Below the pieces are notes generated by a model. It saw only the letters and a program-made list of their open reading frames with translations. It was not told where the DNA came from and searched no databases. The translations under genes and the position numbers were made by a program. A stretch of DNA of 64,000 nt from the NCBI RefSeq assembly GCF_003018235.1, contig NZ_CP027437.1. One strand, written 5' to 3'. Each line of letters begins with the position of its first letter. Positions within the stretch are counted from its first letter, which is position 1. Source of the DNA: Escherichia coli (GTDB lineage: Bacteria; Pseudomonadota; Gammaproteobacteria; Enterobacterales; Enterobacteriaceae). Positions 8,990 through 35,488 of this stretch are shown here, in pieces.

Positions 8990-10645
8990 ATGACTCATCT
9001 TCCCCACTGGTGGCAAAACGGCGTTATCTACCAGATTTATCCAAAAAGTTTTCAGGACACCACGGGTAGCGGCACCGGCGATTTACGTGGCGTTATCCAA
9101 CGCCTGGATTATCTGCATAAACTGGGCGTTGATGCCATCTGGCTAACCCCCTTTTATGTCTCTCCCCAGGTCGATAACGGTTACGACGTAGCGAATTATA
9201 CGGCGATTGATCCCACCTATGGCACGCTGGACGATTTTGACGAACTGGTGACACAGGCAAAATCGCGCGGGATTCGTATCATTCTCGATATGGTGTTTAA
9301 CCATACCTCTACCCAACATGCCTGGTTTCGCGAGGCGCTGAACAAAGCAAGCCCTTACCGCCAGTTTTATATCTGGCGCGATGGAGAACCAGAAACACCA
9401 CCGAACAACTGGCGTTCAAAATTTGGCGGTAGTGCGTGGCGCTGGCATGCGGAAAGCGAACAGTACTATTTGCATCTCTTTGCACCAGAACAGGCGGATC
9501 TCAACTGGGAGAATCCAGCGGTACGCGCAGAGCTGAAAAAAGTCTGTGAGTTCTGGGCCGATCGTGGGGTCGACGGGTTGCGCCTGGATGTGGTGAATCT
9601 GATCTCCAAAGATCCGCGTTACCCTGAAGACCAGGATGGCGACGGGCGTCGCTTCTACACCGACGGGCCACGAGCACACGAGTTTTTGCACGAGATGAAC
9701 CGCGATGTGTTTACGCCACGCGGGTTAATGACCGTAGGTGAAATGTCCTCCACCAGCCTTGAGCATTGCCAGCGATACGCGGCTCTGACAGGCAGTGAAT
9801 TGTCGATGACCTTTAATTTTCATCACCTGAAGGTCGATTATCCCGGTGGTGAGAAATGGACGCTGGCTAAACCTGACTTTGTGGCGTTGAAAACATTGTT
9901 CCGCCACTGGCAACAAGGAATGCACAACGTGGCATGGAATGCCTTGTTCTGGTGTAACCACGATCAGCCGCGCATTGTTTCTCGCTTTGGTGATGAAGGT
10001 GAATACCGCGTGCCTGCGGCAAAAATGCTGGCGATGGTGCTGCATGGCATGCAGGGAACGCCGTATATCTACCAGGGCGAAGAGATTGGCATGACCAACC
10101 CGCATTTCACGCGCATTACTGACTATCGCGACGTGGAGAGCCTCAATATGTTTGCCGAGCTGCGCAACGATGGGCGTGATGCCGACGAGTTATTGGCAAT
10201 CCTCGCCAGTAAATCCCGTGACAACAGTCGCACACCCATGCAATGGAGCAACGACGATAATGCCGGGTTTACGGCTGGCGAACCGTGGATTGGCCTGGGC
10301 GATAACTATCAACAAATCAACGTAGAAGCCGCGCTGGCCGATGAGTCCTCGGTGTTTTACACCTACCAAAAGTTAATCGCACTGCGTAAGCAAGAAGCCG
10401 TTCTGACATGGGGCGATTACCAGGATCTGCTGCCAAACAGCCCTGTATTGTGGTGCTATCGCCGTGAATGGAAGGGGCAAACCTTACTGGTCATTGCCAA
10501 CCTTAGCCGTGAGACCCAACCCTGGCAGCCAGGGAAAATGCTCGGCAACTGGCAGCTTGTGATGCATAACTACGAAGAAGCCTCACCACAACCCTGTGCC
10601 ATGACTTTACGGCCTTTTGAGGCTGTCTGGTGGTTACAGAAGTAA
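8990..10645 (+). CDS. treC: trehalose-6-phosphate hydrolase (GH13)
   Basis: 551-aa product from ATG 8990 (MTHLPHWWQNGVIYQIYPKSF); ORF-track start 8843 is an upstream extension overlapping treB. Confidence 0.9.
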   Translation: MTHLPHWWQNGVIYQIYPKSFQDTTGSGTGDLRGVIQRLDYLHKLGVDAIWLTPFYVSPQVDNGYDVANYTAIDPTYGTLDDFDELVTQAKSRGIRIILDMVFNHTSTQHAWFREALNKASPYRQFYIWRDGEPETPPNNWRSKFGGSAWRWHAESEQYYLHLFAPEQADLNWENPAVRAELKKVCEFWADRGVDGLRLDVVNLISKDPRYPEDQDGDGRRFYTDGPRAHEFLHEMNRDVFTPRGLMTVGEMSSTSLEHCQRYAALTGSELSMTFNFHHLKVDYPGGEKWTLAKPDFVALKTLFRHWQQGMHNVAWNALFWCNHDQPRIVSRFGDEGEYRVPAAKMLAMVLHGMQGTPYIYQGEEIGMTNPHFTRITDYRDVESLNMFAELRNDGRDADELLAILASKSRDNSRTPMQWSNDDNAGFTAGEPWIGLGDNYQQINVEAALADESSVFYTYQKLIALRKQEAVLTWGDYQDLLPNSPVLWCYRREWKGQTLLVIANLSRETQPWQPGKMLGNWQLVMHNYEEASPQPCAMTLRPFEAVWWLQK

Positions 10646-10788
10646 ATCTTCGCTAAGCCCCGGTAATGCCTGTCATTCCGGGGTTTTGCCTGTCAGTATG
10701 TTGTTTTTGTTGATTTTATAATCAAAAAATTCATTAAAAAATTTACATATCGCTGTAGCGCCCGTCATCCGTACGCTCTGCTTTTTAC

Positions 10789-10802
10789 TTTGAGCTACAT
10801 CA
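10789..10802. promoter_or_regulatory. candidate FNR site (TTGAGCTACATCAA)
   Basis: Matches TTGAT-N4-ATCAA with one mismatch, about 240 bp upstream of the anaerobic nrdD gene. Confidence 0.35.
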
Positions 10803-10829
10803 AAAAAAGTTCAAACATCCTTGATGCAA

Positions 10830-10877
10830 AGCACTATATATAGACTTTAAAATGCGTCCCAACCCAATATGTTGTAT
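10830..10877. promoter_or_regulatory. two candidate NrdR boxes (CACTATATATAG and CAATATGTTG)
   Basis: Palindromic AT-rich boxes about 31 bp apart upstream of nrdD; resemble NrdR-box consensus as recalled. Confidence 0.35.
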
Positions 10878-11038
10878 TAATCGACTATAATTGCTACTAC
10901 AGCTCCCCACGAAAAAGGTGCGGCGTTGTGGATAAGCGGATGGCGATTGCGGAAAGCACCGGAAAACGAAACAAAAAAACCGGAAAACGTCTTTCCCAAT
11001 TTCTGTGGATAACCTGTTCTTAAAAATATGGAGCGATC

Positions 11039-13177
11039 ATGACACCGCATGTGATGAAACGAGACGGCTGCAAAGTGCCGTTTAAATCAGAGCGCATCAA
11101 AGAAGCGATTCTGCGTGCAGCTAAAGCAGCGGAAGTCGATGATGCCGATTATTGCGCCACTGTTGCTGCGGTTGTCAGCGAGCAGATGCAGGGCCGCAAC
11201 CAGGTGGATATCAATGAGATCCAGACCGCAGTTGAAAACCAGCTGATGTCGGGTCCATACAAACAACTGGCTCGTGCTTACATCGAGTACCGTCACGATC
11301 GCGACATTGAACGTGAAAAACGCGGTCGCCTGAACCAGGAGATCCGTGGTCTGGTCGAGCAGACCAACTCCTCGTTACTCAACGAAAACGCCAACAAAGA
11401 CAGCAAGGTGATTCCAACCCAGCGCGACCTGCTGGCCGGGATCGTGGCTAAACACTATGCACGCCAGCACCTGCTGCCGCGTGACGTGGTGCAGGCACAT
11501 GAACGTGGTGATATTCACTATCACGATCTCGATTACTCACCGTTCTTCCCGATGTTCAACTGCATGTTGATCGACCTGAAAGGCATGCTGACCCAGGGCT
11601 TTAAAATGGGGAACGCCGAGATTGAACCGCCGAAGTCGATCTCTACGGCAACCGCGGTAACTGCGCAGATTATTGCCCAGGTCGCCAGCCATATTTATGG
11701 CGGCACCACCATTAACCGTATCGATGAAGTGCTGGCACCGTTTGTCACCGCCAGCTACAACAAACATCGCAAGACCGCAGAAGAGTGGAACATCCCGGAC
11801 GCCGAAGGCTACGCTAACTCTCGTACCATCAAAGAGTGCTACGATGCCTTCCAGTCGCTGGAGTACGAAGTAAACACCCTGCATACCGCCAACGGTCAAA
11901 CGCCGTTTGTAACCTTTGGTTTTGGTCTGGGCACCAGCTGGGAGTCGCGCCTGATTCAGGAATCGATCCTGCGTAACCGTATCGCCGGCCTCGGTAAAAA
12001 CCGTAAAACGGCGGTGTTCCCGAAACTGGTGTTTGCGATTCGCGATGGCCTGAACCATAAAAAAGGCGATCCGAACTACGACATCAAACAGCTGGCGCTG
12101 GAGTGCGCAAGCAAGCGCATGTATCCGGATATCCTGAACTACGATCAGGTAGTGAAAGTCACCGGTTCGTTTAAAACCCCGATGGGCTGCCGCAGCTTCC
12201 TCGGCGTGTGGGAAAATGAAAACGGCGAGCAGATCCACGATGGTCGTAACAACCTCGGCGTGATCAGCCTGAACCTGCCGCGTATTGCGCTGGAAGCAAA
12301 AGGCGATGAAGCCACCTTCTGGAAGCTGCTGGATGAACGTCTGGTGCTGGCACGTAAGGCGCTGATGACCCGTATCGCCCGTCTGGAAGGCGTGAAGGCA
12401 CGCGTAGCTCCTATCCTCTATATGGAAGGTGCTTGTGGCGTGCGTCTGAATGCTGACGATGATGTTTCTGAAATCTTCAAAAACGGTCGTGCATCTATTT
12501 CGCTGGGTTACATCGGCATCCACGAAACCATTAACGCGCTGTTCGGCGGCGAGCATGTTTATGACAACGAGCAGCTTCGCGCGAAAGGTATCGCGATTGT
12601 TGAACGTCTGCGTCAGGCAGTGGATCAGTGGAAAGAAGAAACGGGTTATGGTTTCAGTCTCTACAGCACGCCGAGTGAAAACCTGTGCGACCGCTTCTGC
12701 CGTCTCGATACCGCTGAGTTTGGCGTGGTGCCGGGCGTGACCGATAAAGGTTACTACACCAACAGTTTCCACCTTGATGTGGAGAAAAAGGTGAACCCGT
12801 ATGACAAGATCGACTTTGAAGCGCCTTACCCGCCGCTGGCGAACGGTGGTTTCATTTGCTACGGCGAGTATCCAAACATTCAGCACAACCTGAAGGCGCT
12901 GGAAGATGTCTGGGATTACAGCTATCAGCATGTACCGTATTACGGCACCAATACGCCGATCGATGAGTGCTACGAGTGTGGCTTTACTGGCGAGTTCGAG
13001 TGCACCAGCAAAGGCTTCACTTGCCCGAAATGTGGTAACCATGACGCCTCCCGTGTGTCGGTAACTCGCCGCGTGTGCGGATATTTAGGTAGCCCGGATG
13101 CACGTCCATTTAACGCCGGTAAGCAGGAAGAAGTTAAGCGCCGCGTTAAACATTTGGGGAATGGGCAGATAGGTTAA
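11039..13177 (+). CDS. nrdD: anaerobic ribonucleoside-triphosphate reductase
   Basis: 712-aa ORF; C-terminal glycyl-radical region and zinc-ribbon cysteines (CYECG...CPKCG) visible. Confidence 0.95.
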   Translation: MTPHVMKRDGCKVPFKSERIKEAILRAAKAAEVDDADYCATVAAVVSEQMQGRNQVDINEIQTAVENQLMSGPYKQLARAYIEYRHDRDIEREKRGRLNQEIRGLVEQTNSSLLNENANKDSKVIPTQRDLLAGIVAKHYARQHLLPRDVVQAHERGDIHYHDLDYSPFFPMFNCMLIDLKGMLTQGFKMGNAEIEPPKSISTATAVTAQIIAQVASHIYGGTTINRIDEVLAPFVTASYNKHRKTAEEWNIPDAEGYANSRTIKECYDAFQSLEYEVNTLHTANGQTPFVTFGFGLGTSWESRLIQESILRNRIAGLGKNRKTAVFPKLVFAIRDGLNHKKGDPNYDIKQLALECASKRMYPDILNYDQVVKVTGSFKTPMGCRSFLGVWENENGEQIHDGRNNLGVISLNLPRIALEAKGDEATFWKLLDERLVLARKALMTRIARLEGVKARVAPILYMEGACGVRLNADDDVSEIFKNGRASISLGYIGIHETINALFGGEHVYDNEQLRAKGIAIVERLRQAVDQWKEETGYGFSLYSTPSENLCDRFCRLDTAEFGVVPGVTDKGYYTNSFHLDVEKKVNPYDKIDFEAPYPPLANGGFICYGEYPNIQHNLKALEDVWDYSYQHVPYYGTNTPIDECYECGFTGEFECTSKGFTCPKCGNHDASRVSVTRRVCGYLGSPDARPFNAGKQEEVKRRVKHLGNGQIG

Positions 13178-13196
13178 TCCTTCCCCCTCACCCTAA

Positions 13197-13218
13197 CCCT
13201 CTCCCTCAAGGGAGAGGG
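13197..13218 (+). terminator. hairpin CCCTCTCCC-TCAA-GGGAGAGGG between nrdD and nrdG (no T-run)
   Basis: 9-bp perfect stem read from sequence; lacks a U-tract so probably a stability or attenuation element rather than a full terminator. Confidence 0.3.
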
Positions 13219-13361
13219 TACCGTTCCGTGCCCCTTCCTGATTCCCGACATAATGAATTGCCTCTGGCCAGTTGGTGTCGTCGCAAGGTGGCAAATGCGT
13301 AGCATCGGGGGACTTCGCCCGTACGCACCAGAGCAGTCATGGCGTCAATTGAGAATCGAAA

Positions 13362-13826
13362 ATGAACTTTCATCAGTACTATCCTGTCGACATCGTCAAC
13401 GGCCCCGGCACTCGCTGCACCCTGTTTGTCTCCGGGTGTGTTCATGAATGCCCCGGTTGCTATAACAAAAGCACCTGGCGGGTAAATTCCGGTCAGCCAT
13501 TTACCAAAGCAATGGAAGACCAGATCATTAACGATCTAAATGACACTCGCATCAAACGCCAGGGGATTTCCCTCTCCGGCGGCGATCCGCTGCATCCGCA
13601 AAACGTGCCGGATATTCTGAAACTGGTACAACGAATCCGCGCCGAATGTCCGGGTAAAGACATTTGGGTGTGGACAGGCTATAAACTCGACGAACTCAAC
13701 GCTGCGCAAATGCAGGTTGTTGATTTGATTAACGTACTGGTCGACGGCAAATTTGTGCAGGATTTAAAAGACCCTTCCCTGATCTGGCGCGGCAGCAGCA
13801 ATCAGGTGGTGCATCATTTGCGTTAG
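13362..13826 (+). CDS. nrdG: anaerobic ribonucleotide reductase activating protein (radical SAM)
   Basis: 154-aa ORF; cysteine cluster CTLFVSGCVHECPGC. Confidence 0.9.
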   Translation: MNFHQYYPVDIVNGPGTRCTLFVSGCVHECPGCYNKSTWRVNSGQPFTKAMEDQIINDLNDTRIKRQGISLSGGDPLHPQNVPDILKLVQRIRAECPGKDIWVWTGYKLDELNAAQMQVVDLINVLVDGKFVQDLKDPSLIWRGSSNQVVHHLR

Positions 13827-14117
13827 TCACTCATCCAGCCGTTTAGTCGCGTCTTCATAAACGGCTGAGTTCTCTCTCTTACCAATAGCTATCACCAACA
13901 CGAGCAACTCTTTATCGTTAACCTGATAAACCAGGCGATATCCCTGTGTGCGCAGCTTAATTTTGTAGCAGTCCGGTAAATCCCGCAGTTTAGCCGATGG
14001 ATTGCGCGGCCTTTTCAGCACATCCTCAAGCTTTTTTTTAAATTGTTCCCGGACTGTCACGCCCAGTTTTTGCCACTCTTTCAGCGCCCGCGGATCAAAC
14101 GCCAGCTCATAGTTCAT
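13827..14117 (-). CDS. RelE/ParE-family mRNA interferase toxin
   Basis: 96-aa product from ATG 14117 (MNYELAFDPRALKEWQKLG...CYKIKLRTQGYRLVYQV...IGKRE); about 60% identical by eye to K-12 RelE as recalled; overlaps the antitoxin stop by 11 nt. Confidence 0.8.
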   Translation of the reverse strand: MNYELAFDPRALKEWQKLGVTVREQFKKKLEDVLKRPRNPSAKLRDLPDCYKIKLRTQGYRLVYQVNDKELLVLVIAIGKRENSAVYEDATKRLDE

Positions 14118-14349
14118 CCAGTCGGACCTTAATGGCCTCTTGTGGGTTGGCCAGTCGTTCCCTGACAGTGCGTAACAAGGCTTCTTCACTATCACTGACA
14201 GTGAGCGTTTTTACCGGCATTCGTCCATTTTCCGCAACGTACTGAAACAGCAGTCGCACTGCTTCAGTAGGCGTGATATTTAATTTTTCCAGCACCGCAT
14301 AAGCCTCATTTTTCAGTTTGTCATCCAGGCGGACGTTAAGTGTGGCCAT
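14107..14349 (-). CDS. RelB/DinJ-family antitoxin
   Basis: 80-aa ORF MATLNVRLDDKLKNEAYAVLEKLNITPTEAVRLL...; strong resemblance to K-12 RelB as recalled; RBS GGAGG upstream. Confidence 0.8.
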   Translation of the reverse strand: MATLNVRLDDKLKNEAYAVLEKLNITPTEAVRLLFQYVAENGRMPVKTLTVSDSEEALLRTVRERLANPQEAIKVRLDEL

Positions 14350-32721: not shown

Positions 32722-32820
32722 TGCCGGATGCGGCGTAAACGCCTTGCCAGGCCTACAAAATCGTCCAAAATCAATATATTGTGGGGACTGCGTAGGCCTG
32801 ATCGGCATAGCGCATCAGCC
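32722..32820. repeat. BIME (two REP palindromes)
   Basis: GCCGGATGCGGCGTAAACGCCTTGCCAGGCCTAC and GTAGGCCTGATCGGCATAGCGCATCAGCC. Confidence 0.5.
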
Positions 32821-34933: not shown

Positions 34934-35488
34934 ATGACCCTACGCAAGATTCTGGCACTCACCTGCCTGCTGTTGCCGATGATGGCTTCCGCACATCAGT
35001 TCGAAACCGGTCAGCGAGTGCCGCCGATTGGCATTACCGATCGGGGCGAGTTGGTGCTTGATAAAGATCAGTTTAGCTACAAAACCTGGAACAGCGCGCA
35101 GTTAGTGGGAAAAGTGCGAGTACTGCAACATATTGCTGGTCGCACCTCTGCAAAAGAGAAAAACGCGACGCTGATTGAAGCGATTAAATCAGCAAAGTTA
35201 CCGCACGATCGTTACCAGACCACCACCATTGTTAACACCGACGACGCAATTCCGGGTTCCGGCATGTTTGTGCGCAGCAGTCTGGAAAGTAATAAAAAGC
35301 TTTATCCCTGGTCGCAGTTTATTGTCGATAGCAATGGCGTCGCGCGCGGTGCCTGGCAGCTGGATGAAGAAAGTTCCGCTGTAGTGGTGCTGGATAAAGA
35401 CGGTCGCGTGCAATGGGCCAAAGACGGGGCGCTCACACAGGAAGAGGTGCAGCAAGTGATGGACCTGCTGCAAAAGTTGCTCAAATAA
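34934..35488 (+). CDS. ytfJ: periplasmic protein YtfJ
   Basis: 184-aa ORF with signal peptide. Confidence 0.8.
   Translation: MTLRKILALTCLLLPMMASAHQFETGQRVPPIGITDRGELVLDKDQFSYKTWNSAQLVGKVRVLQHIAGRTSAKEKNATLIEAIKSAKLPHDRYQTTTIVNTDDAIPGSGMFVRSSLESNKKLYPWSQFIVDSNGVARGAWQLDEESSAVVVLDKDGRVQWAKDGALTQEEVQQVMDLLQKLLK

Follow-up and report, generated by a model that had tools for sequence, protein, structure and literature searches.

The closest described system is the E. coli K-12 nrdDG promoter, nrdDp (Boston and Atlung, 2003; Torrents et al., 2007; Roca et al., 2008; Rozman Grinberg et al., 2025), which drives the class III (anaerobic) ribonucleotide reductase operon, whose enzyme is oxygen-sensitive. 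A 2023 structural study of FNR used a 54-bp E. coli nrdDG oligonucleotide, TACTTTGAGCTACATCAAAAAAAGCTCAAACATCCTTGATGCAAAGCACTATAT, with a pair of FNR motifs centred at -33.5 (site 1) and -64.5 (site 2); affinity was higher for site 2 than for site 1, from which one canonical triad is absent, and SAXS placed FNR on both sites. These positions relative to the transcription start trace to Roca et al. (2008) and Boston and Atlung (2003), as quoted in the structural study, which also relays from Roca et al. (2008) a mutational hierarchy with site 2 dominant over site 1. Genome-wide work in K-12 found the same promoter: Myers et al. (2013) list an nrdD site, TTGATGTAGCTCAA, at 4460919 as bound in vivo, report an nrdD ChIP-seq peak with its summit at 4460925, and list nrdD (expression ratio 0.36) and nrdG (0.27) as affected by FNR.

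Two further regulators have been described at nrdDG. Rozman Grinberg et al. (2025) reported two NrdR boxes of 16 bp each, separated by a linker of 15 bp; in their microscale thermophoresis NrdR bound a 57-bp nrdDG fragment with a KD of 160 ± 37 nM in the presence of ATP plus dATP and 152 nM with ADP plus dATP, while ATP alone gave no binding and a control promoter was left unbound. The E. coli nrdHIEF and nrdAB operators share this architecture, with two 16-bp palindromic boxes, a central AT and a 15-bp linker, and have similar affinity for NrdR-ATP-dATP (113-160 nM over these operators and nrdDG); they differ in being co-regulated by Fur/IscR or DnaA/H-NS instead of FNR, and the functional box pair of nrdAB lies downstream of its promoter. 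In Salmonella Typhimurium the orthologous nrdDG promoter has two NrdR boxes 31-32 bp apart together with FNR boxes, and its box 1 overlaps an FNR site, an overlap that Panosa et al. (2010) remarked upon and put forward as a point of competition; mutation of the NrdR boxes altered expression of their nrdDG reporter, which they described as promoter repression by NrdR. Salmonella is another genus, and our comparison with it is made through that paper, the 80 loci analysed below containing no Salmonella. The third regulator is DnaA: ChIP-seq published in Microbiology in 2024 assigned to nrdD a region occupied by DnaA at 4462739, where coverage was 62-fold that of the control, and tabulated the double DnaA box TTAAGAACAggTTATCCACA there; such sites had been predicted earlier, and the genome has only 32 perfect DnaA boxes.

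We analysed a 64-kb stretch of E. coli DNA (the window), in which an earlier note, made from the letters and their open reading frames, had read positions 10789-10877 as the control region of nrdDG. This region is almost certainly the published nrdDG promoter, situated between treC and nrdD in the E. coli treR-treB-treC / nrdD-nrdG locus. We here give its elements base by base, compare them across the Enterobacterales, and weigh other ways in which they might be read.

The treC-nrdD intergenic region

The reading frames around the region identify the locus. The list of open reading frames gives products of 315, 473 and 600 amino acids, followed on the plus strand by products of 712 and 154 amino acids; in a strain identical over a 406-bp query (bases 10640-11045), the RefSeq-annotated neighbors are treR, treB, treC, nrdD and nrdG. 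Of 5426 complete E. coli genomes, 5425 have the same 406 bp, every time between treC and nrdD. Locus and elements are shared with K-12: the FNR sites, NrdR boxes, -10 hexamer, start region and both DnaA boxes are the same base for base, and the promoter core has a single difference, T10811 in place of C, in the spacer between the FNR sites. A few further changes lie in a far-upstream AT-rich stretch and in the leader, and hit no recognized motif.

To follow these elements across the order we collected 80 Enterobacterales loci, using the N-terminal part of NrdD as the query, and analyzed the 450 bp 5′ of each start codon. Conservation values, in the table and below, are means for the window base over 49 aligned Enterobacteriaceae sequences, no two of them identical and the window among them. 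Overall the motif columns reach 0.85-0.98, and the leader outside its conserved features only 0.38-0.55.

Table 1. Elements of the nrdDG promoter and leader, in window coordinates, with positions relative to the published transcription start.
Feature	Coordinates	Strand	Remarks
FNR site 2, TTGAGCTACATCAA	10790-10803	+	centre -64.5; high affinity; anaerobic activation depends on this site
FNR site 1, TTGATGCAAAGCAC	10821-10834	+	centre -33.5; lower affinity; boosts expression only with site 2 occupied
NrdR box 1, GCACTATATATAGACT	10831-10846	.	core palindrome 10834-10843; -30 to -15
-10 hexamer of nrdDp, TAAAAT	10848-10853	+	placed from the published site positions; in the 15-bp NrdR linker
Transcription start, +1	10861	+	implied by -64.5/-33.5 as quoted from the published mapping; NC_000913.3 4462838
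NrdR box 2, ACCCAATATGTTGTAT	10862-10877	.	core 10865-10874; +2 to +17
Conserved block, TAATCGACTATAAT	10878-10891	+	adjoins NrdR box 2; family consensus TWATCGWCTAYWAT; conservation 0.78-0.81
Distal DnaA box, TTATCCACA	10927-10935	-	perfect 9-mer; +67 to +75; conserved across Enterobacteriaceae
Direct repeat, AAAGCACCGGAAAACG / AAAAAACCGGAAAACG	10953-10989	+	contains CCGGAAAACG; period 21
Proximal double DnaA box, TTAAGAACAggTTATCCACA	11004-11023	-	perfect box 11004-11012; +144 to +163
Shine-Dalgarno GGAG and nrdD start codon ATG	11030-11033; 11039-11041	+	conservation 0.91
Regulated operon nrdDG	11039-13826	+	nrdD 11039-13177, nrdG 13362-13826; open reading frames and RefSeq annotation

Tandem FNR sites and paired NrdR boxes

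The earlier note had proposed a single FNR site at 10789-10802, matching TTGAT-N4-ATCAA at nine of ten positions. The nine-of-ten match is real and is the published site 2, one base further along than proposed; site 1, which matches the same consensus at eight of ten positions, had been overlooked. The 54-mer of the structural study is found in the window with T10811 for C as its one substitution. In NC_000913.3 the 14-mer of site 2 occupies 4462896-4462909, shifted by 1977 bp from the coordinates of Myers et al. (2013). Once this shift is applied, the centre of site 2 coincides with the FNR ChIP-seq summit. We take the 1977 bp to be the difference in length between two versions of the K-12 reference. 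The published matrix score of the site (15.68; Myers et al., 2013) is among the highest listed for K-12, and so clearly not below the genomic background.

Both sites, at their fixed offset of 31 bp, are kept in nearly all of the 49 Enterobacteriaceae sequences, with a conservation of 0.98 for ATCAA of site 2 and likewise for TTGAT of site 1. Site 1 is mostly a better TTGATGCAAATCAC in this family: most Enterobacteriaceae other than Escherichia have the stronger half-site ATCAC, where E. coli has AGCAC. More distant genera do not have site 1, and many distant Enterobacterales have a single FNR-like site. From these alignments site 1 appears to be confined to the Enterobacteriaceae among the loci sampled. 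FNR activates canonically from -41.5 and from -61.5 or -71.5; the distances found here, -33.5 and -64.5, differ from these and are unusual for activation by FNR.

Downstream of the FNR sites, the paired NrdR boxes that had been proposed from the letters are borne out, both of them lying inside the published NrdR-binding 57-mer, which is identical to window 10826-10882. The first palindrome was placed correctly, with CACTATATATAG at 10832-10843 enclosing the perfect 10-bp palindrome CTATATATAG; the second, CAATATGTTG, is present 31 bp from the first, start to start, as had been said, one base downstream of the 10864-10873 given for it, and has one departure from a perfect palindrome. Setting 16-bp boxes on these two palindromes gives centres at 10838.5 and 10869.5, 31 bp apart, with a linker of 15 bp, and puts the pair 162-208 bp 5′ of the nrdD ATG. 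Box 1 overlaps FNR site 1 by 4 bp (GCAC, 10831-10834, the right half of the FNR site). The boxes had also been said to overlap a likely -10; instead, they flank it on either side. Their conservation in Enterobacteriaceae is 0.80-0.85, and a box pair stands 5′ of nrdD in all 81 sequences (the window and the 80 Enterobacterales loci), with 68 pairs spaced at 31 bp and the other 13 at 32 bp.

Motifs of this kind invite the objection that they are chance matches in AT-rich intergenic DNA and that nrdDG is regulated elsewhere. Single FNR matches are indeed not rare: the 64-kb window contains seven with one mismatch against 2.64 expected. The NrdR core CWATATRTWG is enriched, with six matches against 0.76 expected, among them isolated cores at 32772 and 35126. 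The arrangements, in contrast, are unique in the window. FNR-like 14-mers in tandem at exactly 31 bp have a single occurrence, and 100 shuffles produced none; NrdR cores paired at 31 bp occur at this locus only, against 0.05 expected. Spacing and sequence are moreover conserved across genera, and the objection is already refuted by published binding and ChIP data that put both proteins on these exact sequences, so that we give it practically no credence. Elsewhere in the window we treated three further matches, one to FNR (35058) and two to the NrdR core (32772 and 35126), as chance occurrences: each is isolated and unpaired, and those at 35058 and 35126 lie at or near ytfJ, with no intergenic features around them.

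It could also be argued that the AT-rich palindromes are mainly sites for H-NS or another nucleoid protein, or plain promoter elements, with NrdR secondary. H-NS is named beside Fnr as an nrdDG promoter-binding factor in the discussion of the 2025 NrdR study, and CTATATATAG resembles a -10-like TATA run. Binding of NrdR to the identical 57-mer is, however, specific, nanomolar and dependent on nucleotide effectors; the 31-32 bp spacing of the boxes is kept order-wide, which a nucleoid protein would not need; and in Salmonella mutations in the boxes change the expression of nrdDG. We therefore regard this reading as highly improbable, and treat the palindromes as NrdR boxes in what follows.

Start site and the conserved block downstream of it

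We positioned the start by arithmetic, setting the FNR centres (10796.5 and 10827.5) at -64.5 and -33.5. The start so quoted lies close to the motifs, which span -64.5 to +17, and gives a leader of 178 nt (10861-11038), near the roughly 190 nt that had been estimated. An 87-bp fragment ending at this start is among the promoters listed as anaerobically induced, though it is weak. The -10 hexamer is TAAAAT, TAGAAT or TAACAT in all 50 Enterobacteriaceae sequences (conservation 0.95), and in distant Enterobacterales a -10-like hexamer likewise lies within the linker of the NrdR boxes. Our consensus scan for sigma-70 promoters returned no plus-strand match, and one chance-level match on the minus strand; the lack of a plus-strand match is expected of an activator-dependent promoter, and the scan is thus uninformative.

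Immediately after NrdR box 2 lies a further conserved block, within which a TAnnnT hexamer (10886-10891) is kept in 46 of 50 Enterobacteriaceae. The hexamer is TATAAT in the window, and its middle positions vary over the family (TATTAT, TACAAT, TACTAT, TATAAT). A single-promoter model with FNR and NrdR leaves this hexamer unexplained.

One explanation would be a second promoter: the main FNR-dependent start would lie about 37 nt further downstream, near 10898, with TATAAT at 10886-10891 as its -10, or both promoters would operate. The FNR sites would then stand at about -71 and -102, with NrdR box 2 lying over the -35 region. An FNR dimer centred at -71.5 is on the known class I activating face. 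A conserved TAnnnT with a variable middle is what a -10 element would be expected to show; the block exceeds the remaining leader (0.38-0.55) in conservation; and the isolated 87-bp fragment is weak. That same fragment, which ends before the hexamer, is nevertheless among the anaerobically induced promoters, and the published start, as quoted, is the one that gives -33.5 and -64.5. The proposed second promoter has no recognizable -35, nor did the consensus scan find a promoter on its strand; distant Enterobacterales keep their -10-like hexamer in the NrdR linker, as the upstream promoter does; and a DnaA box that has decayed is an alternative reading of the block. We favor the published start at 10861, on the strength of the 87-bp fragment, the published mapping and the order-wide -10 in the NrdR linker, and consider a main or additional start near 10898 unlikely.

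The suggestion of a decayed DnaA box comes from the position of the block in other genera. At this position Yersinia, Serratia, Pectobacterium, Dickeya, Edwardsiella, Hafnia paralvei, Budvicia and Morganella have a perfect double DnaA box, TTATCCACA-nnn-TCATCCACA; a third perfect box, some 55 bp further downstream, has the opposite orientation. The block of E. coli agrees with TTATCCACA at six of nine positions. The block might thus be an undescribed functional element, either the -10 of a second promoter with the FNR sites at class I distances or a low-affinity remnant of a double DnaA box, TTATCCACAnnnTCATCCACA, although we hold even this broader proposal to be rather doubtful. Were the remnant reading true, NrdR and DnaA operators would have been contiguous ancestrally, and the DnaA sites would have moved deeper into the leader in the Enterobacteriaceae.

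DnaA boxes in the nrdD leader and the regulation of nrdDG

The leader downstream of the published start carries conserved DnaA boxes, which were absent from the earlier note. Perfect TTATCCACA boxes occur just twice in the 64-kb window, both times in the nrdD leader, and the perfect box of the proximal pair has its partner, TTAAGAACA, 2 bp off. The two leader 9-mers have a conservation of 0.94, against 0.38-0.39 for the rest of the leader. The DnaA ChIP-seq peak at 4462739 corresponds to window position 10960, between the two perfect boxes. In combining a perfect box with a weaker one 2-3 bp away, nrdD resembles nrdA, purH, polA, datA and DARS from the same 2024 study; it differs from these in that its boxes lie in the transcribed leader, at +67 and +144, and in that a second perfect box stands 77 bp upstream of the double box. 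Across the Enterobacterales DnaA boxes are found upstream of nrdD, but rearranged. A 2025 study reported that NrdD protein is raised on deletion of DARS2, which would fit repression by DnaA-ATP; that DnaA acts in this direction is our inference.

Other features of the leader are less telling. The direct repeat that had been noted, CCGGAAAACG at 10959-10968 and 10980-10989, is present as described and extends to 16-mers (10953-10968 and 10974-10989) that are 88% identical. Among the loci compared it occurs in E. coli and E. albertii only, within the part of the leader that is conserved least; we accordingly rejected it as a regulatory site. A riboswitch or attenuator found no support either. 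An Rfam scan of the leader at E ≤ 1 gave no match; folding of the leader against shuffles showed no excess stability (MFE z -0.87); and RNAalifold returned zero consensus pairs, both on 45 leaders and on the 41-sequence stretch 5′ of the distal DnaA box. Folded singly, many species form a local hairpin terminating in UGUGG, part of the DnaA box (mean z -1.8 against mononucleotide shuffles). Its pairs are out of register between species and its 5′ arm is a low-information CWACA motif, and we claim no structure. Upstream of the leader, at 10675-10742, Rfam gave a non-significant match to STnc410 (16 bits against a threshold of 50).

We conclude, with high confidence, that the region is a sigma-70 promoter and operator of nrdDG that is activated by FNR, repressed by NrdR and followed by a leader bound by DnaA. 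For this exact sequence the literature documents FNR at both sites, NrdR at the box pair, the effect of FNR on expression and DnaA occupancy, and describes nrdD expression as dependent on both FNR and NrdR. Without oxygen, [4Fe-4S]-FNR dimers occupy the two sites on the same face of the helix, 31 bp apart. Site 2, of high affinity, is necessary and sufficient for activation, and the degenerate site 1 adds a boost only once site 2 is filled; the dimers bring RNA polymerase to a promoter with a good -10, TAAAAT, but no usable -35. NrdR, a Zn-ribbon/ATP-cone protein, is the repressor, with boxes that bracket the -10 and the start. Given this placement and the 4-bp overlap of box 1 with FNR site 1, NrdR, once bound, should block access of polymerase as well as competing with FNR for site 1; we infer both this steric mode of repression and the competition from the layout of the sites. 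Expression of nrdDG should then be limited to anaerobic conditions without surplus dATP. DnaA, on the two perfect boxes of the 178-nt leader in vivo, would link the operon to the initiation of replication.

The nrdDG promoter region is already known in detail, its FNR, NrdR and DnaA inputs all having been published for this exact sequence, and as a promoter it is nothing new. The composite operator was recognizable from sequence alone; our analysis adds a base-accurate map that includes FNR site 1 and the DnaA boxes, and a comparative picture over 80 Enterobacterales loci. What the map brings together is a single promoter at which E. coli would integrate oxygen through FNR, the balance of dATP and ATP through NrdR, and the status of the replication initiator through DnaA.

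DnaA boxes in the nrdD leader

The E. coli nrdD leader (178 nt) contains two perfect DnaA boxes in identical orientation, spaced 77 bp apart; no further perfect box occurs in the 64-kb window. DnaA binds here in cells: a 2024 ChIP-seq study found DnaA at the nrdD leader, with a peak that maps to window position 10960. Leader length varies, being 72 nt in Escherichia sp. ESNIH1 and Pseudescherichia vulneris against ~178 nt; in these two genomes the pair of FNR sites and the pair of NrdR boxes upstream of nrdD are retained, and the distal DnaA box is missing. The short leader lacking this box points to an insertion or deletion of ~100 bp.

Outside the Enterobacteriaceae, the other Enterobacterales compared (L051-L081) have a perfect double DnaA box, TTATCCACAnnnTCATCCACA, immediately adjoining NrdR box 2, for example in Yersinia pestis (L058), Serratia plymuthica (L073) and Pectobacterium (L064). 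A third perfect box lies ~55 bp downstream of the double box in the opposite orientation, and the whole arrangement falls ~30-140 bp upstream of nrdD. Between the double and third boxes is an inner GC-rich hairpin (arms, for example, CGCAGC..GCTGCG, CCGCAG..CTGCGG and CTGTAAC..GTTACGG), whose arms show compensatory changes as judged by eye.

Features in and around the treC-nrdD intergenic region, and isolated motif matches elsewhere in the window
Feature	Position	Strand	Sequence or remark
Hairpin 3' of treC	10658-10687
STnc410 match	10675-10742		Rfam scan
Block upstream of FNR site 2	10782-10789		TTTTTAC
FNR site 1, right half	10830-10834		AGCAC
Conserved block directly 3' of NrdR box 2	10878-10891		TAATCGACTATAAT; family consensus TWATCGWCTAYWAT
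Perfect DnaA box, nrdD leader	10927-10935	minus	TTATCCACA
Perfect DnaA box, nrdD leader	within 11004-11023	minus	TTATCCACA
RelE-family toxin / RelB-DinJ antitoxin pair	13827-14349	minus	annotation transfer
NrdR-core-like string	32772-32781		CAATATATTG; isolated, unpaired
FNR-like site	35058-35071		TTGATAAAGATCAG; isolated
NrdR-core-like string	35126-35135		CAATATGTTG; isolated, unpaired

Flanking genes and isolated motif matches

The GC-rich hairpin 13 bp past the treC stop codon (CCCCGG..CCGGGG, with an inner AATG/CATT stem, then TTTT) is probably the treC intrinsic terminator; a simple scan overlooked it because of a bulge. In the AT-rich stretch 3' of this terminator, STnc410, an sRNA family of enterobacteria, was matched weakly and without significance: the score was 16.2 bits, where the gathering score is 50 (E 0.58). 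At the other end of the operon, a toxin-antitoxin pair directly adjoins the nrdG stop codon (13826) and is convergent with nrdG; its annotation was transferred from a strain that has the 406-bp promoter query without a mismatch, the positions being placed through the coordinate offset and agreeing with ORFs in the window. The FNR-like and NrdR-core-like matches elsewhere in the window are unpaired, and no intergenic features were seen in the stretch around 35058 and 35126, at or near ytfJ; we treated these matches as chance.

FNR sites and the block beyond NrdR box 2

The right half of FNR site 1 is weaker in E. coli than the ATCAC of most Enterobacteriaceae, and in two divergent Escherichia genomes (E69 and SCPM-O-B-8794) TTAAT replaces TTGAT. 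Because of these changes, FNR site 1 seems to be decaying in the E. coli/Escherichia lineage. Directly upstream of FNR site 2, the TTTTTAC block is 0.90 conserved across the Enterobacteriaceae, more than predicted for a position outside the FNR consensus; it may be a flank that aids FNR binding or DNA bending. The block abutting NrdR box 2 contains a hexamer whose TAnnnT pattern is kept in 46 of 50 Enterobacteriaceae sequences; the block may act as a second -10 element or be a DnaA box that has decayed.
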